From Ostreococcus lucimarinus (taxonomy: Eukaryota): a DNA stretch of 64,000 bases. Where the stretch lies: NCBI GenBank assembly GCA_000092065.1, contig CP000590.1; one strand, 5' to 3'. A model generated the notes under the pieces. The model saw only the letters and a list, made by a program, of their open reading frames with translations. It was not told the origin of the DNA and searched no databases. Position numbers and translations under genes: made by a program. Positions within the stretch are counted from its first letter, which is position 1. Each line of letters starts with the position of its first letter. Positions 1 through 16,781 of the stretch are shown one piece after another.

Positions 1-2755
1 GAGCCTGAGGGCGCATAACGAGGAAGCGATCGCGAAATATGCAAACTTTCCGGAGTTGGATAAGCCGGACGCGCACGTGGCGCGAGATGCGGATGGGTAC
101 TACGTCGTGAAGGAGGAGTGGCGAAAACCGACGAATCCCTTTGAAAAGTTGAAGCTCGCGAAGGATCCGATGCGAGAGTTGATCGGGATGAACGGGATCG
201 AGGAGATGGCCAAGGCGAGCGCGGCGGATTTCAAGGCTTGGGACGAGGCGTTGAATGACCCGGACGAGACCGATCAACGACCGAAGTGGGCGGGTTTGTT
301 TCATCGACGCAAAGGACACTACGGGCGATACATGATGCGACTCAAGCTTCCGAACGGACTCATTAACTCGACGCAGATGCGATATTTGGCGAGCGTGATT
401 AAAAAGTACGGCGAAGATGGGTGCTGCGACATCACGACGAGACAAAACATTCAGCTTCGTGGGGTTGAGTTGAAGGATGCGCCCGAAATCTTGCGCAAAC
501 TCGAAGAGCTCGGTATGTGCTCGTTGCAAAGCGGGTTGGACAACGTGCGCAACGCGACGGGGAACCCGCTCGCGGGTTTTGATCCGCAAGAAATCGTCGA
601 CACGCGACCTTACACGCTCGCCATTCAAGATTACGTCACCGGTGGTGGGCGCGGGAATCCAGCCATCGCTAACTTGGGGCGTAAGTGGAACGTGTGCGTC
701 GTCGGCAGCAGCGACTTTTTCGAGCATCCGGACATCAACGACTTGGCCTTCATTCCAGCGATGAAGGATGGCAAGTTCGGATTCAACATGATCGTCGGTG
801 GCTTCATATCTTCTCAGCGCGCAGCGGAGTCGGTCTCTCTCGATGCGTGGATCCCTGAGAACGAGCTTGTCGCCGCGACGCACGCCGTGTTGACGACGTT
901 TCGCGATTACGGCCATCGCGGCAACCGCCAAAAGTGCCGCATGATGTGGCTCATCGACGAGATGGGTTTGGAAACGTTTCGCACCGAAGTTGCGTCGCGC
1001 ATGCCAACGGGAGACTTGGCGCGCGGCGCCGAAGTGGATCTCATCGACCGAGAGTCTCCGCGACGCAGTTACATCGGCGTGCACGCGCAAAAGCAAGAGG
1101 GCTTGAGCTGGGTCGCCGCTGCCGTGCCGGGCGGACGTATGCAACCGGAAGATCTCGCGGAGATGGCTGATCTCGCGGACAAGTACGGCGAAGGTGAGAT
1201 TCGACTCACCGTCGAGCAAAACTTTATCATTCCCCACGTGCCGAACGATAAGATTGACGCCATTCTCCAAGAGCGTTTGTTTCAAGAGTACACGCCGTTC
1301 CCGGGCAAACTTGTGTCCAACATGGTGGCGTGCACCGGAAATCAGTTCTGCGGATTCGCGCAAATCGAGACGAAGCGACAAGCGCTCGAAATGGCGGAAC
1401 ACTTGGAAAGTTGCTTAGAACTTTCGAAGGACGTGCGCATGATTTGGACAGGTTGCCCGAACTCTTGCGCTCCGGTGCAAGTGGCGGACATTGGCCTCAT
1501 GGGCGCGCAGGTGAAGAATCCGACGGGCGAGAAGGGCATGGTACCAGGGGTGAACATCTTCATCGGTGGTACCGTCGGGCCGAACGGCCACTTGAAGGAA
1601 GCGCCAGAAATCGCAAAGGTCCCGTGCTCAGAGTTGAAGCCGGTTCTGGAACAGATTATGATTGAGAGGTTTGGCGCGACGCGCAAGGCGACGCCGACGC
1701 CGAATCCGGGGCGAGCGTCGCGCTGGAAAATCAACAAATCTGCGCAGTATACCAAGGGTGTCCCTAAAGCCATGGGTAAGGCGACGCACATTTGCACCGG
1801 ATGTGGTTACATTTATCAAGAGACGAAGAAGTTCGACGAGTTGCCGGATGACTACGTCTGTCCGTCGTGCAGCGCGCCGAAGTCCAAGTTTGAAGCGATG
1901 AAGCAGGAAGAGACGCCCACGAGCGCTCGCCCGGTCGTGGAGTACCCCGAAGGCACGCTCGCGACGCTGAAGAACGGCGAAACCGTTGAATTGAAGCTCG
2001 TTGAGAAGGAACAAGTGACGTCGAACACTGTACGCCTTCGATTTGAACTCCCGTCGCCGGAGCACATCCTCGGACTTCCCGTCGGGCAACACGTGACGGT
2101 GACCATCGACGGCGTGTCTCGTCCGTACACTCCGATCACGCGCGATGCGGACAAGGGTTTCATGGACCTTCTCGTGAAGATTTATGATCAAGGCGCGCTC
2201 ACGCAAAAGCTCAACGCCGTGGCCGTGGGATCTACCGTAGCGTTCGAAGGACCGAATGGGTTGGTGACGTACAGCGCTCGCGGCGAATTTTCTACGCGCA
2301 ATCCGGCGACGGGCTCTGTGGCGAAGAAATCATGCAAGAACATCGCCATGATCGCCGGTGGTACTGGCATCACCCCTATGCTTCAAGTCATTCGCCAAAT
2401 CTTCAACGATGTCGGGGACACGACGCGGGTCAACTTGTTATTCGCCAACGTCTCCTCGGCGGATATTCTCTTGAAGAAGGAGCTCGACGAGCTCGCGAGC
2501 GCGCACAAAAACTTGACGGTGCACTACGCGATCGACAAGGATGAACCAAACTGGAACGGCGAGGTTGGATACGTTTCAGAGGAAATGATCAAGAAGTGCG
2601 ACTTGCTGAAGCGAGGTGGCTTGATGGACAAATTGTTTTCATCCGCCGACGACACCGCGGTCCTCGTGTGCGGCCCGCCGGCGATGGTTGAGAAAGCCGT
2701 TGTGCCCGCGTTGGACGCACTGAATGTCTCTACAGATTCTCGAATTTTCTTTTAA
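1..2755 (+). CDS. NII: Nitrite reductase fused to a rubredoxin domain and an NAD(P)H cytochrome-b5-reductase-type FAD/NAD domain. The 5' end is cut by the window edge: the reading frame is open from nt 2, the listed M at 56 is a TTG, and the true start lies upstream.
   Basis: The N-terminal ~560 aa align along their length to plant ferredoxin-nitrite reductase (EKLKLAKDPM..., LFHRRKGHYGRYMMRLKLPNG, CCDITTRQNIQLRG, siroheme/4Fe-4S Cys cluster TGNQFCG...TGCPNSCA). A rubredoxin motif follows (CTGCGYIY...PDDYVCPSCSAPKSKFE), then a b5-reductase/NR-type flavin domain (RPYTPIT, GGTGITP, CGPPAM). The ORF is continuous to a stop at 2755. Confidence 0.9.
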   Translation, partial: SLRAHNEEAIAKYANFPELDKPDAHVARDADGYYVVKEEWRKPTNPFEKLKLAKDPMRELIGMNGIEEMAKASAADFKAWDEALNDPDETDQRPKWAGLFHRRKGHYGRYMMRLKLPNGLINSTQMRYLASVIKKYGEDGCCDITTRQNIQLRGVELKDAPEILRKLEELGMCSLQSGLDNVRNATGNPLAGFDPQEIVDTRPYTLAIQDYVTGGGRGNPAIANLGRKWNVCVVGSSDFFEHPDINDLAFIPAMKDGKFGFNMIVGGFISSQRAAESVSLDAWIPENELVAATHAVLTTFRDYGHRGNRQKCRMMWLIDEMGLETFRTEVASRMPTGDLARGAEVDLIDRESPRRSYIGVHAQKQEGLSWVAAAVPGGRMQPEDLAEMADLADKYGEGEIRLTVEQNFIIPHVPNDKIDAILQERLFQEYTPFPGKLVSNMVACTGNQFCGFAQIETKRQALEMAEHLESCLELSKDVRMIWTGCPNSCAPVQVADIGLMGAQVKNPTGEKGMVPGVNIFIGGTVGPNGHLKEAPEIAKVPCSELKPVLEQIMIERFGATRKATPTPNPGRASRWKINKSAQYTKGVPKAMGKATHICTGCGYIYQETKKFDELPDDYVCPSCSAPKSKFEAMKQEETPTSARPVVEYPEGTLATLKNGETVELKLVEKEQVTSNTVRLRFELPSPEHILGLPVGQHVTVTIDGVSRPYTPITRDADKGFMDLLVKIYDQGALTQKLNAVAVGSTVAFEGPNGLVTYSARGEFSTRNPATGSVAKKSCKNIAMIAGGTGITPMLQVIRQIFNDVGDTTRVNLLFANVSSADILLKKELDELASAHKNLTVHYAIDKDEPNWNGEVGYVSEEMIKKCDLLKRGGLMDKLFSSADDTAVLVCGPPAMVEKAVVPALDALNVSTDSRIFF

Positions 2756-3024
2756 GACAAAGCGAACAACTACATAGTTTACTCACAATTCATCAGCTCA
2801 CGTCGTTTGTCATTTAAAATCAGTCGACGTCTAAAACATGTTGCGCGGCGCGCGACTGCTTCCGGCGTTCGTTTGCGCACATGAGACTCGATAAGTTAGG
2901 AAAGAAGAGGAATAAGAAAATTACAAGCAACGTCTCCGTAACAAGGACGCGTGTGCACGGTTCATCTATCTACAATTTGTTTTCCCGATGAAGTTGATCG
3001 CGTCGAAAGTCGCGCGTTGCGCGC

Positions 3025-3877
3025 TTACGCATATTGCGCTGCGGCGGCGTTTTGCTTCTTGTAATCGTACATCGTACCGGCAGTGGCGACGATGATAGAG
3101 AACGCGATGAAGAAGCTCATCGTGCCGACGAGCGCTTGCGGCAAGCGGTCGTAGGTGACGACTTCGAAGGTGCAAGAAGAATCGTCGCCGTATCGCACGT
3201 AGCCGCTGGAGTCCGATTCCAAGACTTGGATAAAGTACTTGGCCGGCGCGATGTTCAACGGGAGCGGGATGTCGACGTTACCAGTCGCCGACCCGCCCGT
3301 GATGCCCGCTTTGAGATAGTCGGCCTCGACCACGGTTTGCTTGCATCGCTTGTTCTTGTTGACGATGTCTTTCTTCTTGCGCCACGGCTTGGAGGCGAGT
3401 TCGGAGTCGTCGTAGCACAACTTCACCATCATCGTGTTCCCCGACGTCGTGGAAGCACCGGTCCACGCCACGTTGATGGAGTTCAAACCACCCTGCGCTT
3501 TCTACGAACGTGAAAAACAAATAATCAAGTCAGTCTTCGAATCACGAACGAAATCGCCAGCGTCGCCGCGCCCGACCCCCAAAGGACACTCGCGCCGGTC
3601 GAACGCTTATCCGCCCTCGCGTCGTCTCCGCCCGCGCGTCGTCCCCACGCCACCCACGCGTCCACTCGCGCGTCGAGCGCGCGCCCGAATGCGTTATTTC
3701 TCGCGCGGTCGCGCGCACACGCACCGAACCAGCCGCGCACGCCCCGCCGTCGATCGTCGTCGTCACGCCGAGCGTGTTCGACGACATCTCGCTGTACTTG
3801 GTGAACGCGTGCGCGCCGTCCGCGAGCATCGCCGTGGCGGCGAGACCACCGATCAAGAGCTTCTTCAATTCAACCAT
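3025..3877 (-). CDS. NAR2: NAR2/NRT3 high-affinity nitrate transporter accessory protein. Two exons, join(3025..3501, 3725..3877) on the minus strand, 209 aa.
   Basis: Exon 2 carries the NAR2 signature VKLCYDDSELASKPWRKKKD (plant KLCYA...WRKT) and a C-terminal TM helix SFFIAFSIIVATAG. Exon 1 encodes a signal peptide (MVELKKLLIGGLAATAMLADGAHA). The intron runs 3502..3724 with donor GTGCGTGTGCG, branch ACTGAC (minus strand 3534..3529) 25 nt before the AG and a polypyrimidine tract. An in-frame TAG sits just upstream of exon 2. Confidence 0.75.
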
Positions 3878-4249
3878 CGTCGTTCGTGCGTCGTTCGCGC
3901 GTCGTCGTCGTCGTCGCGGGCGCGTCGAGGAGTGTCGACATCGGCGCGACGCGCGGCGTTTCGGGACGCCAAGCGTCGCCAAAGGGCGACCGTTGGTGAC
4001 CCTTCGTTCCAAGCGTCACACGGCTAAACATCGTTTATATACGCGCGTCGACCCGGTTTATTTTATTAACTATTACGCGTACGCGTGTAAGTTGTATTTT
4101 TACCTTGAATACGTAAAAACACGATGAGGGTTTCGTGAATGTTTTATGCGTCGTCGCGACGGGACGCGACGCGGTGCGACGCCGCGCGTCACTCCACAGC
4201 GCGTCAGCGAGCACGCCGCGACCTCGAATCGCGACAGCGCACGCGCGAA
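3878..4249. promoter_or_regulatory. Bidirectional promoter shared by divergent NAR2 and NRT2. It holds an AT-rich core at about 4020-4140 with TATA-like cgtttatatacgcg and ttattttattaactatta.
   Basis: Only 372 bp separate the two ATGs (3877 minus, 4250 plus). It is an AT-rich island in otherwise >65% GC sequence. The same NAR2/NRT2 head-to-head arrangement is known from Chlamydomonas. Confidence 0.45.
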
Positions 4250-5958
4250 ATGGCGATCACTAAAGAATTCAATGTCCCCGTGGACAGGTGCGTGTGGTTC
4301 GAGGCGCGCGCGAACGTGGGGGGGGGTTAAAGCGACGACGATGCGTCGCGGTTGTGTCGAAACGACGTGGTCGAATCGAGCGCGTGTGCGGTCGCGCGCG
4401 ATGGCGACGCGGCGCTCGAACGCGTCGATAACGATGAAAGATATATTTGTTTATGCTTTCATGCCCGCGAGACTGACGTGTAACGCGCGGTGCCGTCGTA
4501 CGTGGCCACAGCGAGCACAAGGCGATGAAGCTGAACGTCTTCAGCTTTGATCGCCCGCACCACTTGTCCTTCCACATGTCCTGGTTGGGTTTCTTCATCT
4601 CTTTCGTCTCGACGTTCGCGGCGGCGCCGATGATTCCGGTGATTCGTGAAGACTTGGGTCTCACGAAGCCGCAGCTCGGGAACGCTGGTTTGGCGGCGGT
4701 GACGGGTACTATTATTTGCCGCGTGCTGATGGGTACGGTGTGCGACCTCATCGGCCCGCGACTCGGTTTGTCGGTTATTCTTTTGGCCACCGCGCCCTTC
4801 TGCTTCGCCATGGCCATGGTGCAAGGCTTCGAAGGTTTCCTGATCTGCCGTTTGGGCATCGGTCTGGGTCTCGCCACGTTCGTGGCGTGCCAGTTCTGGA
4901 TGTCTTGCATGTTCAACAGCAAGTGCGTCGGTCTCGCCAACGCGACCGCCGCGGGCTGGGGTAACTTGGGCGGCGGAGTCACGCAATTCTTGATGCCGGG
5001 CATCTACGCCATCTGCTACTCGGCGACCAACAGCCGTGCGTTCACTGCCTGGCGTTGGGCGTACATCTTCCCGGGCATGTGCCACACCGTAGTCGGTTTG
5101 ATGGTCATGTACCTCGGCCAAGATTTGCCGGATGGTAACTACAAGGTGCTCACGACTTCGGGCGCGCTCGAAAAGAAGTCCTCCATGAAGGTCAACTTGA
5201 TCGGCATGAAGAACTACCGCATGTGGTGCATGGTCGCCACCTACGGTTTCTGCTTCGGCGTTGAACTCACGATGAACAACATCGTCGCCGGTTACCTCTT
5301 TGATCAATTCGGCGTCTCCCTCTCTGTCGCAGGCGTGTTGGCGTCTTGCTACGGTATGATGAACTTGTTCGCCCGCTCCGTGGGTGGCATCATCTCTGAC
5401 TGGTCTTCTAACCGCTTCGGTATGCGAGGACGTCTTTGGACTTTGTGGTCCACCCAAACGCTCGAAGGTGTGCTGTGCATCTTCATGGGTCTCTCCAAGG
5501 ACAACTTGGGCGCCACCATCGCGTTCATGGTGTTCTTCTCCATTTGCGTGCAGGCGTCCGAAGGCGCTTCTTACGGTATCGTGCCGTTCATCTCCCGCCG
5601 CGCTCTCGGTGTCGTCTCTGGTTTCATCGGTGCTGGCGGTAACGCTGGTGCCACCATCGCCACCGCCGCCTTCTTCACCAAGGATTCCATTGAGACGTAC
5701 GAAGGTCTCCAGTACCTCGGTTACACCGTCATCGGCGTCACCGCTTTGGTCATCCCGATTCACTTCCCAATGTGGGGCTCCATGTTCTTCCCGGCATCCA
5801 AAACGGCCACGGAAGAGGACTACTACATTCACAACGAGTTCACTCCGGAAGAAATCAAAGCTGGTCTCGCCGCTCCGGTCCAAAAGTTCTGCAACAACTC
5901 TCGCAACGAGCGCCCGGTTTGGAAGCGCGAGCAAGATGCGGTTGAAGCCTCCGCGTAA
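4250..5958 (+). CDS. NRT2: NRT2 high-affinity nitrate/nitrite transporter (MFS nitrate-nitrite porter family). Two exons, join(4250..4287, 4512..5958).
   Basis: 12 TM helices and the AGWGNLGGG NNP signature. Exon 1 (MAITKEFNVPVD) splices so that the junction reads PVDSEHKAMKLNVFSF...HLSFHMSW, matching the conserved NRT2 N-terminus (PVDSEHKA...FHLSW). The intron 4288..4511 has donor GTGCGTGTGG and branch ACTGAC at 4472..4477, 32 nt before the AG at 4510-4511. Confidence 0.85.
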
Positions 5959-6122
5959 TTCTTTTTTACTCTCGCGTCGCAAGAGTGCATCGTTTATAAA
6001 AAATCACCTCTACGTAGTGTGTAACATAACTCTTATTGCAAACTCTCCACGAACAGCCGACGTCTGGGGCGACGCGCGAAATTGATCAACAAATTGTCTT
6101 CCTACAAATTCAACTCTACGCT

Positions 6123-7550
6123 CTATCGCTGCCCGCCTTCGGCGGACGGTCCCACTTCGAGTCTACGCTGCACCTCCATCAATATGTGCGTCCCGATCCC
6201 CGCGGCGAAACCAATCGCCGTACTCTTAGTCGCGATCGTCACCGCAGCGGTCACCATGACGAGATACTTCTGGTGCTGATGCCATCCGGGTTTCGTCTTC
6301 AAGCCCATGCCAATGAGCTCCAAACTCGACGAAAATAACATGACTCCTAATATAGTCTTCGGAAAGTGCTCCAAGAGCTTCGTTAATGAGCTCCCGAATA
6401 ATAAACCGAGGGCAAGCTTGCACAAGCCGAGGAACACGATCGATCCTCCGCCGCGAGCACCGAAAGCGTACTGAGCCGCTAAACCGCCAGCGCCGTGGCA
6501 CGACGGCATCGCGCCTACCCAACACCCGACGATATTCATCATCCCCACGCTCGTCGCCACTGAGCTCGGCGACGCGGGAAAATCAGGAAACAATTCTTTG
6601 CTCAGTGCACACACGGAGATCACTGAATTTAACGTCGTCAATGGAAGTTGCGGGACGCCGGCGTTTACGATGCCGCGCTTTGCCTCGGACCACGACGCGC
6701 TCAAAATCTTTGGCGTGGCTGGTCCAAACTTCAATCCGCTCAGCGCGCCATCTTTCGTCATGGCCATGGTGATACCGAGCACAACGAGAATAAGCGCCAT
6801 GGGAATGTAGTGACGCATGCGTTTCCGACGTTCGCCATCCGCCTCAAGTTCGCCTCGCTCGTCGCGAATTGCCGGATACTCGGGCGAGCACACATACATG
6901 ACCGCACACATGGCCACGATGGTGACCAGTAGGCCATCCGTGCCAAACATCCCTCGCACCACACTAGCATCGCTCGACGTGTACACCGCGAGTAAAAACC
7001 CTTTCCTGGCGAGCAACAATCCAAGTCCCACTTGCATGCCTTGCACAACCGCGAGCGGCGTCACTTTATTAAACGTGTCCATCAATCTCGTCGTTCCAAG
7101 CACCAACACGATGGAAGACACGAACAAACCGGCGACCATAATTTCGTTGACATTCAACGGCGACTCTCCCAACGCCACCGCCGCGATCGTCTTCATCGGC
7201 TGCACGGGCATGGGTATCTCGTACAGAAACGCCGTGAGCACGTTGTACAATCCCGTGAACACGATTGTCGTCCCCGCGTCCACGCCACACTCGATCGACA
7301 TCCCGACGAGCAGCGGTAAAAAAGTCCCGAGATCTCCAAGCGCGCCGCTCGCCTCTCGCCAACCGAACTCGCGCCAAAACTTTTCCGCGCGCGCGCCGAC
7401 GACCGCCGCCGTCCCGCCGACGCGCCCTCTCGTCGCGCGCAGCTCCGACGCCGTCGTCTCGCCGCGCTTCTCGCGCGCGCCCGCGTCCACGACGCGAGCG
7501 TCATCATCGTCGTCCGCGATGCGAATCTCGTACTCACCCGCGGACGTCAT
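6123..7550 (-). CDS. MOT1: MOT1-family molybdate transporter
   Basis: Both MOT1 signature motifs are present, GDLGTFLPL...PVQPMKTIAAVA and FGAMPSCHGAGGLAAQYAFGARGG, in a multi-TM protein of 475 aa. ATG confirmed at 7550. Confidence 0.8.
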   Translation of the reverse strand: MTSAGEYEIRIADDDDDARVVDAGAREKRGETTASELRATRGRVGGTAAVVGARAEKFWREFGWREASGALGDLGTFLPLLVGMSIECGVDAGTTIVFTGLYNVLTAFLYEIPMPVQPMKTIAAVALGESPLNVNEIMVAGLFVSSIVLVLGTTRLMDTFNKVTPLAVVQGMQVGLGLLLARKGFLLAVYTSSDASVVRGMFGTDGLLVTIVAMCAVMYVCSPEYPAIRDERGELEADGERRKRMRHYIPMALILVVLGITMAMTKDGALSGLKFGPATPKILSASWSEAKRGIVNAGVPQLPLTTLNSVISVCALSKELFPDFPASPSSVATSVGMMNIVGCWVGAMPSCHGAGGLAAQYAFGARGGGSIVFLGLCKLALGLLFGSSLTKLLEHFPKTILGVMLFSSSLELIGMGLKTKPGWHQHQKYLVMVTAAVTIATKSTAIGFAAGIGTHILMEVQRRLEVGPSAEGGQR

Positions 7551-7770
7551 CGCGCGAGGGCGTCGTGACCTTTCGCGTCCCGCGAAAAGCGCTTTTTCGC
7601 GTGGATGCTCGACCCGCGCGCGTCGCCGCGCGCGCGGATGCGCGAGGAACGCTCGAGGAGATCGTGTTTAACCCAACCCGTGCGCGTGCGCGTCGCGCGC
7701 GAGGCGTAAGCGTCGCGCGCGCTGACGTGTGTGGACGCGAAATGAGAACGTGGGGACGCGCGCGCGCGCG

Positions 7771-7812
7771 CGCGACGAAGACGAAGACGAAGACGAAGAC
7801 GAAGACGAAGAC
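7771..7812. repeat. (GAAGAC)x7 hexanucleotide microsatellite in the MOT1 / CNX2 intergenic spacer
   Basis: gacgaagacgaagacgaagacgaagacgaagacgaagag read directly from the sequence. Confidence 0.9.
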
Positions 7813-7842
7813 GAAGAGACGATGGAAATCTCGCGCAACAGG

Positions 7843-9078
7843 CTAACCCCCTATCTTGATCATCGCGCGATTATCCTGCGCCGCGAGCTCGTGCATGCCC
7901 GCGTGCGCGGCCTTCTTTCGCTTGACCGCAGCGCCGATGACGCGCAAAATGTCGTCGTCCGACGCGCCCGAGCGCATGGCGTCTCGCAAGCTCACCTCTG
8001 AATTGCCGAATAAACAAACCTTCAAATTACCGTCCGCCATGATGCGTAAGCGGTTACATCCGCCGCAGAATGAGTTCGTCATGCTCGTGATGAAGCTCAC
8101 CGAACCTTTGTGACCGGGCAGGGTGAAGTTCTTCGCGACTTCCTCGCGCGGGTCGTCGACGCGCGTCAACGCGCCGTACGCCTCTTCTATTCTCGCGCGC
8201 ATCTCGGCGTACGACACCATCTTCTTCGTGCTCCACTTATTGCCGTCGAACGGCATGTACTCTATAAATCTCACATTAATCGGCTTGTCTTTCGTCAACG
8301 CCACGAAATCAAGCAGCTCGTCGTCGTTTTGCCCGCGCATGACGACGCAGTTCACCTTGACGCTCTGAAATCCGAGTTCGCACGCCTTGTCGACGCTCGC
8401 CAGTACCCGATCGTGCCCTTTCCTCCGCGTCATGAACTCAAACTTCGCCGGCACGAGCGTATCAAGCGACACATTCAAACGCGTCAATCCGTTCGCTCTA
8501 AGCGCGTCTAACCGCTTCGCGAGCGTCACTCCGTTCGTCGTGACGCTCGTCTCGCGCACCCCCGGCGTCCCGCTCACCCGTCGCACCACGTCTTCCAAAT
8601 CTTTTCTCAGCGTCGGCTCACCCCCGGTGAGCCGCACTTTATCCACCCCAGCCGCGGCAAATATTTTAACCACCCTCCCGATCTCATCCGCGGTGAGCAA
8701 CTCATCCTTCGCCGTCAAATCCACGCCGTCCTCGGGCATGCAATACCCGCACCGCAGGTTGCACTTTTCCGTCAAGCTGATGCGCAGGTAATTATGCCCT
8801 CGCCCGAACGCATCCACGAGTTCCGGCGCGACGTTCGCCGTTCGCGACGTCATCGCGCGCGCGGCGACTCGCGGATCGATTCGCGCCCTCGCCCGCGCGC
8901 CCTCGCCCGCGCGCGTCGGTTCCTCCACCGCTCGCCGCGGTGCACTTTTTGTCCCGAGCGCGCTCACCGCGTCCTCGCGCGCGCGTTCGACGCCCTGATC
9001 GCCGCGCGCGATCGCCGCGAGCGTCGCGCTCGCGCGCCGCGCGCCCGGGCGCGTCCACGCGCCGCGCGCGAGCGACAT
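7843..9078 (-). CDS. CNX2: Molybdenum cofactor biosynthesis protein A (GTP 3',8-cyclase, CNX2/MOCS1A-type radical SAM enzyme). The ORF extends to 9324, but the ATG at 9078 gives a 75-aa R/A/S-rich mitochondrial-type presequence and avoids overlap with the divergent gene starting at 9155.
   Basis: The radical-SAM core aligns with E. coli MoaA from [27 protein letters not shown] through GGEPTLRKD to the C-terminal FeS cysteines CGGCNRLR. The start choice is inference; alternatives are 9324 or 8853. Confidence 0.8.
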
Positions 9079-9154
9079 CCTCTGACGTCGCTTCGCGTCG
9101 TTTCGCCCTGTCGACCGGACCGCACCGCGCGTCACTCCGTCGCGCGCGCTCGCG

Positions 9155-9937
9155 ATGTCGCGCGCGCTCGAGGACGACCACGGCTCGTTCGCCGTGATAG
9201 ATCTCGTCGCGCACCTGTACCGCGGCGGCGCGGAAGATCGAGGCGCGCTCGCGAAGATTTGGTCGCGGTACAGCGATGCGACGGTTTCAGAGCGGAAGAC
9301 GACAGGTTTCGAGATGGTGCGCATGCATCACGCGACGCTGACGAGGATGTTTCGAGACGGTGCGTGCGACACGCTCAATTTTCGCGAGCGCGACGCGCGT
9401 CGGGACCGAGGGCGCGCGGTCGAGGGACGGGACGCAAAACGGCGCGAGACGGGACGACGACGAGGACGGGCGAGCGGGACGCGACGGACCGACTGACGAC
9501 GACGACGCGTTCGAACGCGAAAAGACCCGGATGGGGATTACTTAGATATCGAAGACGTGCGCATGACGTGGGAAGAGTTCGTGGACGCGCTGAGAGACGC
9601 CACGGGGGCGTCGGCGGATGAACCGGCGTCGCCGGAGAACGCGAAGTCGTACGACGCGCTCGAACGACCGGTGATGCAAAGAAATCAATCGTTCTCGAAC
9701 TTGGCGAAGGATTTGGAGGAAGTCATCGCCGCCGCGCGCTCGCCCGGGACGAGCGCGGACAACACGCCCGAAGGTTCGACGCGTGGGATTCAGAGAATTT
9801 CATCCTCTGGGATGCTTTTGGGCATCGGCTGCTCGAGCCGCGAACCGTCGCTTCGAGGCGGCAACGCGTTTCACGCGGGCATGACCGTGCGCTCGGAAGA
9901 TTTGAAGAGTCGCCTCGAGAAGAACGCGACGCAGTGA
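9155..9937 (+). CDS. Hypothetical protein of 205 aa. Two exons, join(9155..9359, 9525..9937). Function unknown; it lies inside the Moco/nitrate cluster.
   Basis: Exon 1 has unbiased composition up to ...TLTRMFRD. The GTGCGTGCGAC donor at 9360 and the ACTGAC branch at 9492..9497 (25 nt before the AG at 9523-9524) join it in phase to the ORF continuing [16 protein letters not shown]... No recognisable domain. Confidence 0.45.
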
Positions 9938-10070: not shown

Positions 10071-11447
10071 ATGCCCGCCGAAACCGAAACCGCGCGCAAG
10101 TACCACATCGTCGGCGACTACGCCACCGCGCTGAACCCTCGAAACGACGCGCGAAGCGTGGAAAAATACGCGCGACACTTGGTGCTGCGTCCCCACGGCG
10201 CGCGCATCCAACGCGCGCTGTGCGCCGCGCGCGTCCTCGTCGTCGGCTGCGGTGGCCTCGGGTGCCCGTGCGCGATATATCTCGCCGCCTCGGGCGTGGG
10301 AACGCTCGGATTGTGCGACGCGGACGCGGTGGAGCTGAGCAACTTGCATCGACAGGTGGGACACTCGACGGCGGCGACCGGGACGTCGAAGGCGAAGTCG
10401 TTGGCGGCGCGGTGCGAGGGATTGAACGATGGCGTTCGAGTCGTGGTGCGAGAAACGTTCGCGACGACGGAAAATGTGATGGAACTTGTGGCGGGGTACG
10501 ACTTGGTGTGCGATTGTAGCGATAATCCGAGGACGAGGTATTTGTTGTCGGACGCGTGCGCGAGCGCGGAGATTCCGCTCGTGAGCGCGGCGTGCGTGGG
10601 ATTTGAAGGGCAGCTCACGGTGCTGTGTGGCACGCGAGCGTGGAATGATGACGATGAATCGTTTGGGGAGTTTGCGCCCGCACCGTGTTATCGATGTTTG
10701 TTTCCGACGCCGCCGGCGTCGGGAGACGCCGGGACGTGCGGGGCGTCTGGCGTGCTCGGACCGCTGCCTGGCATCGTGGGTACTTTTCAAGCGCTCGAGG
10801 CCATGAAAACGCTGGCTGGGGTAGGGGAGTCCATGCGAGGAAAAATGTTAACGTTCGACGCGTTGAGCGCGAGACCGACGATGACGTTGAACATGCGGGA
10901 ACAGCGAGACGCCGCGTGCGCGTGTTGCTCGACGTTGACGTCTCACGACGGACGCTTCGACGTCGCGACGTACGATTACGACGCTTTCTTATCGTCGACG
11001 CCGTGTCCGATGCGCGGAAGAAAAGCGAGACGCGGTGGCGTTGATGTGAACGCGCCGCCGAAGTTTGGGGCGCGAGAAATGCCGGAGCGCGGCGGCGGCG
11101 GCTGGCGACGCGTGGATGCGAAAGCGGCGACGACGTACGTCAAAGATGAGGGCGTCACCGTAGTCGACGTGCGTCCCAAGCACATGTACGACGCAGCGCA
11201 CATACCTGGATCTATTTCGTTACCAATAGAAACGCTCGACGTCGAGACGTGGAACGGCGCCGTGGGCGCGGCGGTTGAAGGATACCGTCTGTGCTTCGTG
11301 TGCGCGGGAGGCAACAACAGCCAAAGAGCGGCGCAATGGTTCGTGGACGCGAAAGTCGCCACCGCTGCCCCGGCGAGCGTCGTCGACGTTTGTGGCGGTC
11401 TCGCCGCGATGCGCGACGCGGGCTACGACGTCCCGAGACTCGATTGA
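10071..11447 (+). CDS. MOCS3: MOCS3/CNX5 adenylyltransferase-sulfurtransferase (MoeB/ThiF E1-like domain plus C-terminal rhodanese domain)
   Basis: ThiF nucleotide-binding motif VLVVGCGGLGCP, zinc CxxC pairs, and a rhodanese domain with active-site Cys in CFVCAGGNNSQRAAQW. ATG at 10071. Confidence 0.85.
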   Translation: MPAETETARKYHIVGDYATALNPRNDARSVEKYARHLVLRPHGARIQRALCAARVLVVGCGGLGCPCAIYLAASGVGTLGLCDADAVELSNLHRQVGHSTAATGTSKAKSLAARCEGLNDGVRVVVRETFATTENVMELVAGYDLVCDCSDNPRTRYLLSDACASAEIPLVSAACVGFEGQLTVLCGTRAWNDDDESFGEFAPAPCYRCLFPTPPASGDAGTCGASGVLGPLPGIVGTFQALEAMKTLAGVGESMRGKMLTFDALSARPTMTLNMREQRDAACACCSTLTSHDGRFDVATYDYDAFLSSTPCPMRGRKARRGGVDVNAPPKFGAREMPERGGGGWRRVDAKAATTYVKDEGVTVVDVRPKHMYDAAHIPGSISLPIETLDVETWNGAVGAAVEGYRLCFVCAGGNNSQRAAQWFVDAKVATAAPASVVDVCGGLAAMRDAGYDVPRLD

Positions 11448-11655: not shown

Positions 11656-12339
11656 TCAGAACTTTGTAGTAATTCGAAAAGTCGCGGCGACGATCGCCCC
11701 ACCCACGATTCGCCGCCACCACCGTCCACGCCGCGGCTTCTCGCCCTTATCCGACGCGGCGTCGCGCGTCGAGAGCGCGACCTCCGCGACGACGTCCTCT
11801 TCCGACCGCCCCTGCGGGCATCCGTTCGCCTCGAGATATCGCAACACGCCCTCGCTCGCGCCGCCCGCGTACTTGACCCAAAAGTCTCTGTCTTTCGCCA
11901 ACCACGCCGGCACCGGCGACGCGCGCGTCGTCGTCTCGCGCTCCGTCTCCGCCTCCGTCTCCGCCTCCGCCTCCGCCTCCGCCTCCGCGTCGCCCTCGCG
12001 CGTCACCACCCCGATCTGAAAATCTCTCAGCTGCGTCCACGCCCGCGCGCTGTGAATCTCCTCGAACTCATCGCTCGCCTCTTTCCCGAGCGCCCGCGCG
12101 ATCGCCAGCGCCGTCGACACCTGCCCCGCGTTGTTGAATCCCGGGTGCGTCGTCGCGAACGCCGTGATGTCGAACACGCGCTCGCGCACCACGATCCATC
12201 CGTCCGCGAGGCGCGCGTGCGCCGCGACGTCCTCGCGCGTGTACTTTCGCCACCTCGCGCGCTCGTCGTCCGTCGGCGCGCGCCGGAGCGCGTCGACGAC
12301 GGCGAGGTCGACGGCGACGTCGCGCCCGGACGCGTGCAT
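11656..12339 (-). CDS. Cytochrome b5-domain protein with a C-terminal tail-anchor helix, transcribed divergently from nitrate reductase. The listed ORF extends to 12798 through R-rich sequence.
   Basis: Heme-binding b5 fold YTREDVAAHARLADGWIVVRERVFDITAFATTHPGF...DEFEEIHS with both His ligands. An (EA)n linker is encoded by a (CTCCGC)n repeat at about 11941-11990. C-terminal hydrophobic tail RRGRWWRRIVGGAIVAATF. The C-terminal frame is uncertain: an alternative frame (ORF 11498..11722) also looks protein-like. Confidence 0.55.
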   Translation of the reverse strand: MHASGRDVAVDLAVVDALRRAPTDDERARWRKYTREDVAAHARLADGWIVVRERVFDITAFATTHPGFNNAGQVSTALAIARALGKEASDEFEEIHSARAWTQLRDFQIGVVTREGDAEAEAEAEAETEAETERETTTRASPVPAWLAKDRDFWVKYAGGASEGVLRYLEANGCPQGRSEEDVVAEVALSTRDAASDKGEKPRRGRWWRRIVGGAIVAATFRITTKF

Positions 12340-12658
12340 CGTCGCGCCGTTCGAGCGCGGACGACCGGACGCGTCGTCGGCGGCGCGCGGACGCGCGGCC
12401 GCGCGCGCGCGGACGCGTCGCGCGTCGCGCGCGCGCGTCGCGCGTCGCGTCGTGGCGCGACGACGTCGACGGGCGCGAAGCGTCACTTTGGTAAAAAAGG
12501 AAAAAATGCGTATGGGCAAACAGTATGACGCTTCGGCGACGCTTGGAGATTCCGAAACGACTCGGTCGACGGCTGGCGTCGACGCGACGCGACGCGCACA
12601 ACGCGGCCCTCGCGCGGTCGACGCGGCGTCGCGAGACTCGAAGCGTCGTCGTCGAGTC

Positions 12659-14324
12659 ATGGCGAACGCCGTCGTCGCGATCGTCGCCGCGGGCGCGGGC
12701 GCGTTCGCGGGCAAGCTGCTCGACGGGAAAAAGCGCGAGACGTCGCGAGGCGCGGACGACGCGGACGACGTCGACTTTAAGACGGACGCGAAGTCCAACG
12801 TCGATCACGCGGCGGCGGCGAAAAAGCATCAGTACCTGGCGCAGAAGTACCCGGAGGTGGACGAGCGAGACTTGAAGACGCCGGATAATTGGGTGAAGAG
12901 GCATCCGTGCGTGCGAGACGCGAGGCGACGCGAACGCGGGACGACGAGGACGCGGCGAACGACGACGGCGCGCGTGACTGACGGTGGTTTGCGTCGATCG
13001 TGGTGATAGGAATTTGATTCGTCTGACCGGGAAACACCCGTTTAACGTCGAGGCGTCGCTTCCGGAGTTGTATGATTACGGATTCATCTCGCCGGTGAAC
13101 TTGCACATCGTGCGGAATCACGGCGCGGTGCCGAAGTGCGATTGGGACACGCACAAGATTAACATTTGTGGCAACGTCCCGAAACCGTTCGAGATCGGTA
13201 TGGACGAGTTGGTGAAAATGCCGAGCGACACGTTCCCGTGCTTGGTGGTGTGCGCGGGGAACCGTCGGAAGGAACAAAACTTGGTCAAGTCGTCGATTGG
13301 GTTCTCGTGGGGGCCGTGCGCCATCGGAAACACGTACTGGACGGGCGTACCGCTGCGAGTGTTGCTCAACAGAGCGGGCATTCATAAGCCCGGTCCGGGT
13401 GCGCGATACGTGTGCTTGGCTGGTCCGCAAAACGAATTGCCGAAGGACTACCCCGATCAAGACGGTGGTCCGGGATCGTACGGCACATCCATCGACATGG
13501 AAACCGCGCTCGATCCGACGTGCGATGTCATTGTGGCGTACGAACAAAACGGTGCCAAGCTTCACCCAGACCATGGATTCCCAGTGCGGGTGATCATTCC
13601 CGGTTACATCGGTGGGCGCATGATAAAGTTTTTGAAGGAGATTAAAGTCACCGACAGAGAGTCAAACAACTTTTATCACTTCAACGATAACCGCGTGTTA
13701 CCGCCGCCAGTTGACGCTGAGCGCGCGACCGAGGAGGGATGGTGGTTCAAGCCCGAGTTCATCATCAACCAACTCAACATTAACGGTGCCATCGCGTACC
13801 CGGCGCCCGAAGAAGTCATTCCCAAGTCGCAAAAGACGTACGCCTTCAAAGGTTACGCCTACTCTGGCGGCGGTCGCAAGGTCATTCGCGCCGAGCTTTC
13901 CTTCGATCAAGGCTTGAGCTGGGAATTGAGTGATATTCACACTCGCGAAGAACCGCGATGGGCCGATTTCAGCTCCGGTGACAAGGCCAGGCACTGGTGC
14001 TGGTGCATGTGGACTCTCGAAGTGCCGATTGAGAAGCTCCTCGACAAAAAGTGCGTCGAAGTGTGCTTCCGCGCCGTCGATCAATCCATGAACAAAATGG
14101 ACGAGCGCCCGACGTGGAACGTCATGGGTATGTTGAACAACCCGTGGTACCGCGTCCGCATCCACCACACGCCCACGGGCGACGTTCGCGTGGAGCATCC
14201 GTGCATCGCCGGTCCGACCCCCGGCGGCTGGATGCAAAAGATGGCGGCTAAGGAACCCACCGGAGAACTTCTCTGGGGCTGGGGCGGCCAAGGCACGCCG
14301 GCCGCGCCCCCGAGAGAAGAATAA
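12659..14324 (+). CDS. NIA: Nitrate reductase, Mo-molybdopterin and dimerisation domains only. Two exons, join(12659..12906, 13010..14324), 520 aa. It stops in hinge 1 with no cytochrome-b5, FAD or NADH domains.
   Basis: NR-specific motifs TPDNWVKRHP|NLIRLTGKHPFN (splice junction), Mo-ligand Cys in LVVCAGNRRKEQNLVKSSIGFSWG, and the dimerisation domain WWFKPEFIINQLNING...YAFKGYAYSGGG...WNVMGMLNNPWYRV...GGWMQKMAAKE, then a stop after about 30 more residues followed by an AT-rich 3' UTR. Intron 12907..13009 with donor GTGCGTGCGAG and branch ACTGAC at 12977..12982. Confidence 0.8.
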
Positions 14325-14485
14325 ATTATTCGTGATGTTTTTCGATTTATTATGACCTCGTGTAAGATTATCACCATCATTCCTTAAGTCTCTCTCTCTT
14401 CGCCGTCGACGCTCGGCGTCGACGCTCGCGCGCCTCACACGCAGCCTCGCGTCCGACTTCGCTTCATCCCACGACCGCGCGCGCG

Positions 14486-14767
14486 ATGGATCTCATATTC
14501 ATCCTCCGTCAATACATCGGCATCGTCCTCTCCATGGCCGCCTTCGCCGGCTTCGCCTTCTGCACCAAACTCGAGCGACGCTTCGACCTCGACCAAACCA
14601 AAATCATTCACGTCTCCGTCGGTCTCGCCGTCGTCGGCCTGCTGTTCCACGAACTGCGCCCGTACAAGCGACAGGCTGGATTGACGTTTAGCAAAGAGCA
14701 GGCCGAGGAGGAGTGGAAGGCGCGCGAGGAGGAGATCGCCGCGGCGAAGACGAAGAAGAAAAAGTAA
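14486..14767 (+). CDS. Small hypothetical membrane protein (93 aa, two hydrophobic helices, Lys-rich tail)
   Basis: A real ATG with unbiased composition, sitting between the NR 3' UTR and the kinase gene. No recognisable family. Confidence 0.3.
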   Translation: MDLIFILRQYIGIVLSMAAFAGFAFCTKLERRFDLDQTKIIHVSVGLAVVGLLFHELRPYKRQAGLTFSKEQAEEEWKAREEEIAAAKTKKKK

Positions 14768-14987: not shown

Positions 14988-16781
14988 ATGGGATGCGCCG
15001 CGTCCTCCGCGAGCGCGTCCGCGCCCGCGAGCGCGCTCGCGCTCGTCGACTTCAACGCGCGATTCGCGGACGAGTACGTCGTGCGGGAGAAAATCGGCGT
15101 CGGACAGCAAGGGACGGTGTACCTGTGCGAGGACGCGGAGACCGGGACGACGCGCGCGATGAAGGAGACGCACATCGGGGTGTTCGGCGCGAACGCGAAG
15201 CGACGAGAGGCGTACTGCGAGATTGAATTGCTGTCGCAGATGCGACATCCGAACGTGGTGAGGATGGTGAAGGCGTACCAGACGAGCGCGGAGGTGCAGG
15301 TGGTCATGGAACACGCCGGGCGAGACACGTTGTTGACGTACCTCGTCGCTCTGGACGACGCCGAGGGGATGACGGAGGAAGAAAAGATGCACATTAAACA
15401 TGAATTGATTCGGCAGTTGGTGGACGCGGTCGCGCACGTGCACTCGAGGGATGTGGTGTTTCGGGATTTGAAGCACGAAAACGTCATGGTCACGAGCGAC
15501 GACGATTTGAGAAACGCGCAGATTAAGCTCGTTGATTTCGGTCGCGCGGCGTCGCTGCGCCGGGAAGATCGACTGAATAATCAGCCACCTCTCGGGACGT
15601 CGTTATTTCAAGCGCCCGAAGTAGAAGAGCGTCGAGAGTATGGACAAGCGGCGGATATGTGGGCCGTCGGCGTCTTCGTTTACTTTTTAGTCACGGGGCA
15701 GATGCCGTTCGAGCACACCGTGGCGGGGCTTTACAAGGTGCTGCGAGGAGAATATGAACCCATGGAAGAGTCAATAAATAAGCACGCGCGCAATTTGGTG
15801 GCTAAGCTTCTCGTGCTCGACCCGGCGAAACGAATCAACGCTGCTCAAGCGAGCACGCATCGATTCTTGCGGCAGAGAAACGCCGCGCACGTGCACGTCG
15901 GCGAGGGCGACGCGCTCAGAGTGCCGAAACACATGGAAAAAGCGGCAAAGAGACAACTCCGAGCGCTCGTGATGCAGGACAGTCTGGAGCTGCACACGGT
16001 GGGATTGCTCGCGGAGAAGCTCACGCCCGAGGATTTGAAGACGCTTCGGCGTTGGTTACGCATGAAGGCGGAAATGTCTGTGCGCGGAGGAGTGGCGAAC
16101 GCGCGCGAAAAAAATGCATCTCATAGTATCTCTCAGCGACAGTCTCCGGATGCTTCAATCCGAGCGGGTCACACGTACACCGACGAACTCCAGGCACACG
16201 TGGCGCTCAACGCGTTGTACAATGAAATGACGAAGGATCAAGGGAGTGAGTCCAACAGTAGAGAAGTGAGCTTCCATGGCGGCGCACTTACGAAAACGCA
16301 GTCGTACCAGAAGCTCACGGAAGCACTGGAAAATTTAGAAGAAATGAGTTCTGGTGACGAAGCCGATGTGCACAGGCCGTCTCCGCCAAAGAAGATTAGC
16401 AAAAGCTCGCTGAGCGACGCCGCGCGGCAAGAGTCCGCACAAAAGACTACTGGCACGAGTGATATCGCTACAAGCCGCAGTTTCGTCGGCTACGCGCATC
16501 AGAGCGGAATGTGTACGGTGGATGAGCTCATCACTGCTTGCATTAGCGCTGGCCTTCAATCCGTGGCGGACGAGTTGCAAACCGTTCGCGACGATTTGAA
16601 AAAAGAACGCTTGGCGAAGCTCGCGGCGACGGGCGCGGATACGCAGACGCAGAACGAGAGCGTCCTTCTCGACATCATGCTCTTCAGATACGAAGACTTA
16701 CTTGCGAAGGTCGAGAACGCGCACTTAGACCAAGTAAAGGACTGGTCAGTTCGAGCGGGAGTGATGGAGAACGGGCTGTAG
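14988..16781 (+). CDS. Ser/Thr protein kinase (CAMK/CDPK-related catalytic domain) with an N-terminal MGCAAS myristoylation/palmitoylation motif and a long non-catalytic C-terminus
   Basis: Kinase subdomains GVGQQGTVY...AMK, HRDLKHENVMV, DFG, APE. ATG at 14988. No EF hands. Confidence 0.8.
   Translation: MGCAASSASASAPASALALVDFNARFADEYVVREKIGVGQQGTVYLCEDAETGTTRAMKETHIGVFGANAKRREAYCEIELLSQMRHPNVVRMVKAYQTSAEVQVVMEHAGRDTLLTYLVALDDAEGMTEEEKMHIKHELIRQLVDAVAHVHSRDVVFRDLKHENVMVTSDDDLRNAQIKLVDFGRAASLRREDRLNNQPPLGTSLFQAPEVEERREYGQAADMWAVGVFVYFLVTGQMPFEHTVAGLYKVLRGEYEPMEESINKHARNLVAKLLVLDPAKRINAAQASTHRFLRQRNAAHVHVGEGDALRVPKHMEKAAKRQLRALVMQDSLELHTVGLLAEKLTPEDLKTLRRWLRMKAEMSVRGGVANAREKNASHSISQRQSPDASIRAGHTYTDELQAHVALNALYNEMTKDQGSESNSREVSFHGGALTKTQSYQKLTEALENLEEMSSGDEADVHRPSPPKKISKSSLSDAARQESAQKTTGTSDIATSRSFVGYAHQSGMCTVDELITACISAGLQSVADELQTVRDDLKKERLAKLAATGADTQTQNESVLLDIMLFRYEDLLAKVENAHLDQVKDWSVRAGVMENGL

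Follow-up and report, generated by a model that had tools for sequence, protein, structure and literature searches.

Why should the nitrate-assimilation gene cluster of Ostreococcus lucimarinus contain a nitrate reductase (NR) gene that stops in hinge 1? The question is raised by a 64,000-nucleotide stretch of contig CP000590.1 (assembly GCA_000092065.1), here called the window, which partly covers this cluster of an Ostreococcus-type alga. An initial annotation, made from the letters of the window alone, described a two-exon NR frame reduced to its molybdenum (Mo) and dimerisation domains, with a divergent cytochrome b5 beside it, and proposed a split nitrate-reducing system. We find that this truncated NR (tNR) is a conserved, transcribed and strongly constrained protein with a complete NR-type Mo site and no reductase domains. 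Comparison of sequences suggests that it is probably a stand-alone NR-type Mo subunit, which would reduce nitrate with electrons received in trans from a b5-type heme.

The spliced tNR product has 520 residues, with ...WVKRHP followed by NLIRLTGKHPFN across the splice junction. The junction (12906/13010) is validated because other Ostreococcus species have an unbroken open reading frame across it. The intron is limited to the window species, in which loci L017-L021 keep the gap; loci L022-L038, from other species, have a contiguous frame, and the gene is uninterrupted in four other Ostreococcus-type groups. Pfam recognizes PF00174 (residues 120-305, 8.7e-52) and PF03404 (334-469, 7.9e-44) and nothing else. 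PF00173, PF00970 and PF00175 were searched for with Pfam and are absent from the polypeptide, so that the heme domain is indeed missing from it, and the protein ends in hinge 1 as first described, 29 residues past GGWM. Residues 1-19 form an Ala/Gly/Val-rich hydrophobic N terminus. Its hydrophobic 17-mer (Kyte-Doolittle about 1.7-2.1) is retained in Ostreococcus, Bathycoccus-like and Micromonas tNRs, and hydrophobicity is weaker in those of Pseudoscourfieldia and Pyramimonas.

This end is genuine. All 112 tNR-clade sequences retrieved end no more than 60 residues after the WGWGG motif. MMETSP records marked 'type:complete' give 523 residues for the Ostreococcus protein and 521 for that of Micromonas; the Pyramimonas record has 495, with no completeness flag visible in its description. 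Searching the window by tblastn with full-length NRs revealed no heme, FAD or NAD coding sequence 3' of tNR. The shared end, which extends to the other Mamiellophyceae compared, the matching MMETSP lengths and the lack of a downstream tblastn match lead us to reject an assembly error or missed downstream exons. The 3' flank (14325-14440) is AT-rich, as had been noted, with 48% GC against about 60% nearby.

The make-up of tNR, Mo plus dimerisation domain, equals that of plant sulfite oxidase. Yet its pocket and catalytic residues (Arg118, Cys164, Asn310 and Met455/457) are all of the NR type and invariant in the tNR clade. Where sulfite oxidase has Tyr322, Arg450 and Val452 (chicken numbering), tNR has Asn, Met and Met, that is, Asn with Met-Gly-Met rather than Tyr with Arg-Gly-Val, and on this pocket we reject its identity as a plant-type sulfite oxidase. 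Two sulfite oxidases engineered to reduce nitrate, 3R18 and 3R19, also have Asn at the position of Asn310; indeed, the pocket of tNR matches that of 3R19. The best PDB match of tNR is Pichia NR (2BIH; 2.6e-103, 350 bits), compared with about 1e-60 and about 200 bits for sulfite oxidases, and tNR nests among NRs in the tree described below. The JGI label 'YedYZ catalytic subunit' carried by tNR homologues is an automatic name.

Nor is tNR an inactive paralogue. Its identity across Ostreococcus species is 88-91%, against 42-63% for CNX5, b5, the kinase and the small protein encoded around it. The ratio of non-synonymous to synonymous substitution (dN/dS) between Ostreococcus species is 0.05-0.075 for tNR and 0.09-0.10 for nitrite reductase (NiR), with dS near saturation. 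These ratios, the MMETSP transcript records and the common end of the 112 sequences argue against a decaying copy. That tNR is either a two-domain sulfite oxidase or an inactive or decaying NR is scarcely credible.

Is tNR the only NR of this organism? Within the window it appears to be. Full-length NRs find three pieces only in a tblastn search of the whole window: tNR (to 14234), the b5 (12004-12249) and the NiR-fused FAD/NAD domain (1946-2752), which is the sole such domain in the window, in agreement with the initial annotation. On the annotation's reading, tNR would be the only NR, cut down to its Mo module, with the b5 and the NiR-fused flavin domain jointly replacing the lost domains. 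The window holds no further NR Mo, heme or flavin piece, the NiR-fused domain is of the b5-reductase type (NADH-b5 reductase 3 match 1e-59, ahead of 2e-39 for the corn NR FAD domain) and the b5 is a conserved neighbour, all of which would suit such a replacement. However, contig L009 of the same species, 99.8% identical to window positions 1-9196, extends leftwards into an intact five-domain NR (P0229, 967 residues) and then NAR1. P0229 is divergent from NiR and begins some 0.8 kb to the left of the window (mapped about -803 to -3706). L009 rules out tNR as the genome's only NR, and with it the claim that the NR of this organism is reduced to a module. Moreover, the flavin domain of NiR shows no special kinship with the NR subtype ancestral to tNR. 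A sole NR completed by these two window genes is therefore very improbable; what survives of the split system is a tNR lacking reductase domains and a b5 that is its conserved partner gene.

Coexistence of tNR with a five-domain NR is seen at L009, L007, L014, L005 and L012. Studies of O. tauri take the five-domain ostta10g00920 as 'the' NR (sources include the PMC4855317 supplement), and reviews count one NR per Mamiellales genome (PMC4620153 among the sources).

In the window species the Mo sites of both tNR and the five-domain NR are intact. Elsewhere the Mo site of the five-domain protein is gone, with its heme, FAD and NAD motifs retained: in Micromonas pusilla CCMP1545, in an Ostreococcus species (P0243/P0244), in P0241 and in Pseudoscourfieldia (1044 residues). 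In M. pusilla CCMP1545 the degraded Mo-site motifs read LLASAGNRRKELR, VENVSS and NLLGCG. The proteins at L012, L015 and L005 have lost other pocket residues besides the Mo-ligand Cys. P0244 lies on contig L015, whose synteny is exactly Ostreococcus-like, and is 80% (b5), 89% (FAD) and 82% (NAD) identical to P0229 against 48% for the Mo and 53% for the dimerisation domain. For the five-domain protein, dN/dS is 0.54 in the N-terminal half and 0.10 in the C-terminal half. The species of P0244 has an intact tNR, which lies on L022, a contig coinciding with L015 over 4.6 kb at 100% identity; a single locus holds both tNR and the protein with the dead Mo site in M. pusilla and in Pseudoscourfieldia. 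Judged by motif conservation, tNR looks like the sole protein with an NR-type Mo site in these lineages, whose remaining pathway genes are intact. Independently, the supplementary alignment of PMC6400420 has two EUKNR entries for M. pusilla whose sequences are the ones seen here; the main text makes no comment on them.

tNR can work only with electrons supplied in trans. We propose that its Mo centre would reduce nitrate and that a b5-type heme would deliver the electrons. Two mutually compatible donors are candidates: the tail-anchored b5 divergent from tNR, and the five-domain NR through its heme-FAD-NAD(P)H half. As the trans reductase, the five-domain protein is a stronger candidate than the NiR flavin domain, which nothing ties to tNR. 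Several lineages that carry tNR have lost the Mo site of the five-domain protein. Under such an arrangement the Mo domain of the five-domain NR would become dispensable and could decay, as it has done in those lineages. Since both Mo sites are intact in the window species, the system there would be either redundant or at an intermediate stage.

Plant nia mutants defective in different domains show intragenic complementation, which is one precedent for this kind of transfer. A further precedent is the NR:NOFNiR system of Chlamydomonas, in which the heme-FAD-NAD(P)H half of NR feeds a separate Mo enzyme in trans, independently of the NR Mo centre (PMC6473468). The acceptor in that case is a MOSC-family protein converting nitrite to nitric oxide (NO), whereas the acceptor proposed here is an NR Mo domain of the sulfite-oxidase family, known from its sequence.

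An alternative is that tNR is an auxiliary enzyme outside bulk nitrate assimilation, for example a membrane-anchored b5-dependent reductase that makes NO from nitrite or scavenges other N-oxides. Its cooperation with the adjoining b5 would resemble that of mARC with b5 and b5 reductase, and assimilation would be left to the five-domain NR wherever that protein's Mo site is intact. The intact five-domain NR of the window species, the treatment of ostta10g00920 as NR in O. tauri and the conserved module of tNR, b5, kinase and small membrane protein, with its membrane-targeting features, are all consistent with such a role. It is nevertheless unlikely. M. pusilla CCMP1545, the L015/L022 Ostreococcus species and Pseudoscourfieldia keep NRT2, NAR2, NiR or NAR1, and these lineages have no NR-type Mo site except in tNR. 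Furthermore, the substrate-pocket residues of tNR exactly match those of assimilatory NR.

Nitrate reduction by tNR with trans electrons might be one part of a broader picture, to which we give somewhat less than an even chance. In Mamiellophyceae and related prasinophytes, assimilatory NR would have become a two-gene enzyme by complementary paralogue decay: tNR keeps the Mo site, and the five-domain 'NR', its own Mo site dispensable and lost at least three times, mainly feeds electrons through NAD(P)H, FAD and heme. A dedicated tail-anchored b5 may, together with the kinase and the small membrane protein, serve to organise it all at a membrane. A membrane-associated complex of this kind is weakly suggested by the hydrophobic tNR N terminus, the tail of the b5, the acylation motif of the kinase and the small membrane protein.

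Several observations weigh against nitrate reduction by tNR with electrons in trans. The five-domain NR of the window species has an intact Mo site, so that tNR is not required to account for nitrate reduction there. In lineages with a dead Mo site, divergence of the five-domain protein has been as rapid in the dimerisation domain as in the Mo domain, which argues against an obligatory heterodimer with tNR. The association with b5 is supportive but not strict, because no b5 lies within 10 kb of tNR at M. commoda-type or Pseudoscourfieldia loci and the b5 family is also present in Chloropicon, distant from nitrogen genes; a Chloropicon tNR was not found among the best database matches listed. 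The AlphaFold model of tNR (mean pLDDT 65, disordered tail) is too poor for docking, and no conclusion was drawn from it. Literature searches found no biochemical or genetic data on tNR and did not confirm nitrate as sole nitrogen source for the species with dead Mo sites, M. pusilla CCMP1545 included. Finally, the tree is a neighbour-joining tree only, and dS is near saturation.

Where does tNR come from? It is present in Mamiellophyceae, Pseudoscourfieldia and Pyramimonas. The best 20 matches in a database search with tNR are 61-87% identical to it and all two-domain, Pseudoscourfieldia and Pyramimonas being among them. A neighbour-joining tree of 391 columns of the Mo and dimerisation domains recovers the tNR clade as monophyletic (bootstrap 90) and sister to a five-domain NR of Prasinococcus (bootstrap 100). 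This protein, P0028, carries 'GGHLNWGWGGEGSPA' in hinge 1 directly ahead of the b5 domain and shares the WGWGG motif of tNR. Because P0028 has WGWGG in hinge 1 before b5, tNR corresponds to a Prasinococcus-type NR cut just past the motif. Tree and motif thus identify tNR as an ancient paralogue, produced by truncation of a Prasinococcus-type five-domain NR after the hinge-1 WGWGG motif. tNR is more similar to Chlamydomonas NR (55%) than to the five-domain NR of its own species (46%), with green-algal NRs at 51-55%. The five-domain proteins of Mamiellophyceae form a clade placed outside the remaining NRs, a position open to long-branch effects. The 'NIA1' of McDonald 2010 fits tNR by position.

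Neither the b5 nor the NiR flavin domain is supported as a relocated fragment of the tNR ancestor. The b5 scores 50-64 bits against NR heme domains and 43-47 bits against classical b5, a marginal difference, and the flavin domain is of the b5-reductase type and not close to the Prasinococcus-type NR.

The b5 that had been placed about 320 bp from tNR on the opposite strand proves to be 319 bp away and divergent. The AlphaFold2 model of its product (pLDDT 76) has a b5 fold according to Foldseek, with a TM score of about 0.8 to b5 structures (outer-membrane b5). His65 and His96 align with the heme ligands, with an atypical 8-residue insertion between them. A GCCTCC-type repeat at 11940-11995 on the minus strand encodes a (Glu-Ala)n acidic linker between the heme domain and the second conserved motif; orthologues have Asp/Glu runs of varying length at this site.

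The region between the two start codons is presumably a bidirectional promoter. The head-to-head b5-tNR pair also occurs at L006, at L017-L038 and in M. pusilla CCMP1545 (L012), and the order CNX5, b5(-), tNR(+), small protein, kinase is kept in all Ostreococcus-type loci with sufficient flank. On Bathycoccus-like contigs tNR is divergent from the five-domain NR, with kinase and b5 adjoining and the b5 3 kb from tNR. The divergent pair, or close neighbourhood, is thus kept across three genera. Kinase orthologues adjoin tNR in Ostreococcus, Bathycoccus-like and M. pusilla loci, and the N terminus of those beside tNR is always MGC(A/S)xS. The 93-residue membrane protein is retained next to tNR or the kinase in Ostreococcus and M. 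pusilla; Bathycoccus-like contigs keep the kinase only. At one such contig, L014, the five-domain NR (2475-5438, minus strand) and tNR (5540-7609, plus strand) stand head-to-head about 100 bp apart, which suggests a shared promoter.

How does tNR compare with known systems? Like EUKNR, it has the Mo and dimerisation domains with matching catalytic and pocket residues and lies within a nitrate-assimilation cluster. Unlike EUKNR, it lacks heme, FAD and NAD(P)H domains, ends past the hinge-1 motif, has a hydrophobic N terminus and coexists with a separate five-domain NR. The mARC/b5/b5-reductase system resembles the proposed one in that it combines a separate Mo enzyme, anchored through its N terminus, with a tail-anchored b5 and a flavin reductase. 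However, mARC has a MOSC fold, whereas tNR contains PF00174 and PF03404 only and the membrane anchoring of tNR and b5 is predicted. Plant sulfite oxidase, bacterial SorAB and YedYZ (MsrPQ) likewise have sulfite-oxidase-family Mo subunits with no fused heme, and in SorAB and YedYZ the heme partner is a separate polypeptide. The specificity residues of these three are of the sulfite-oxidase type or their own, and tNR is far closer to NR.

A full-text literature search, itself partial, found no description of the truncated NR or of five-domain proteins with dead Mo sites. Nitrate use underpins new production in the ocean, where Ostreococcus, Micromonas and Bathycoccus rank with the most abundant picoeukaryotes. 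If the nitrate-reducing site resides in an overlooked 520-residue protein, the annotated five-domain 'NR' would in some species be no more than a reductase module. Gene-based inference of nitrate use, NR markers in metatranscriptomes, knock-out designs in O. tauri and models of NR regulation would then need revision. The system would also show a multidomain redox enzyme being split, naturally and repeatedly, through the loss of complementary domains. Fusion, the reverse of such splitting, is the proposed origin of eukaryotic NR (PMC6400420).

Features of the window, and five-domain proteins without Mo-ligand Cys on other contigs
Feature	Position	Strand	Remarks
NiR fused to rubredoxin and b5-reductase-type FAD/NAD domain (1946-2752)	1-2755	+	left window edge cuts gene
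NAR2	3025-3432	-	
NRT2	4525-5958	+	
MOT1	6123-7550	-	
CNX2	7843-9324	-	
CNX5	10071-11447	+	
Stand-alone cytochrome b5-like gene	11656-12339	-	227 aa; PF00173 residues 34-112, 1.5e-11; heme domain 12004-12240
b5, weakly hydrophobic C-terminal tail	11674-11727	-	
b5, second conserved motif PVPxWLxxDRDFWVxYxGG...LRYLE	11809-11910	-	family alignment
b5-tNR intergenic region	12340-12658	.	319 bp between divergent start codons; 71% GC
tNR	12659-14324	+	520 aa; two exons
tNR exon 1	12659-12906	+	residues 1-19 hydrophobic (12659-12715), acidic linker, then conserved NR N-terminal segment ...PEVDERDLKTPDNWVKRHP
tNR intron	12907-13009	+	103 nt; GTGCGT donor, CTGAC branch, AG acceptor
tNR exon 2	13010-14324	+	Mo-cofactor domain 13119-13676; dimerisation domain 13761-14168; TAA stop 14322-14324
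Cys164 codon	13251-13253	+	Mo ligand in CAGNRRKEQN; invariant in all tNRs and all active NRs aligned
Asn310 codon in 'DNR'	13689-13691	+	NR-type; Tyr322 in sulfite oxidase
Met455-Gly-Met457 codons in 'WNVMGM'	14124-14132	+	NR-type; Arg450, Val452 in sulfite oxidase
C-terminal peptide GELLWGWGGQGTPAAPP	14262-14312	+	hinge 1 remnant; present in 112 tNR sequences
93-aa membrane protein	14486-14767	+	two predicted membrane segments; no Pfam family matched
Ser/Thr protein kinase	14988-16781	+	PF00069, 5.3e-53; N-terminal MGC(A/S)xS acylation motif
Five-domain 'NR' without Mo-ligand Cys	L012 1-3157	-	M. pusilla CCMP1545, GG663738.1; intact tNR coexists
Five-domain 'NR' without Mo-ligand Cys	L015 10001-13042	+	intact tNR coexists
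Five-domain 'NR' without Mo-ligand Cys	L005 12964-16098	-	intact tNR coexists

The published nitrate cluster of O. tauri has the same gene order, five-domain NR included (PMC4620153 and the PMC4855317 supplement). In the analysis the genus was assigned from this synteny and from the UniRef and NCBI names found within the 90% clusters of the closest homologues. The NiR-rubredoxin-flavin fusion at the left window edge is already known as NIRFU (PMC5344333).

Two further genes were found close to tNR on other contigs. According to PMC6128913, raphidophyte NR2-2/2HbN indicates that the domain make-up of NR is not fixed in algae; there a globin domain is added to a single polypeptide, whereas tNR drops the entire reductase half. 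Directly 3' of a Micromonas-type tNR, a 138-residue globin gene (PF00042; L004 11888-12304, plus strand) recalls these NR-globin fusions. In M. pusilla, a GAF_NLP / RWP-RK / PB1 regulator (L012 14694-18407, minus strand) lies 4 kb from the tNR-b5 pair.

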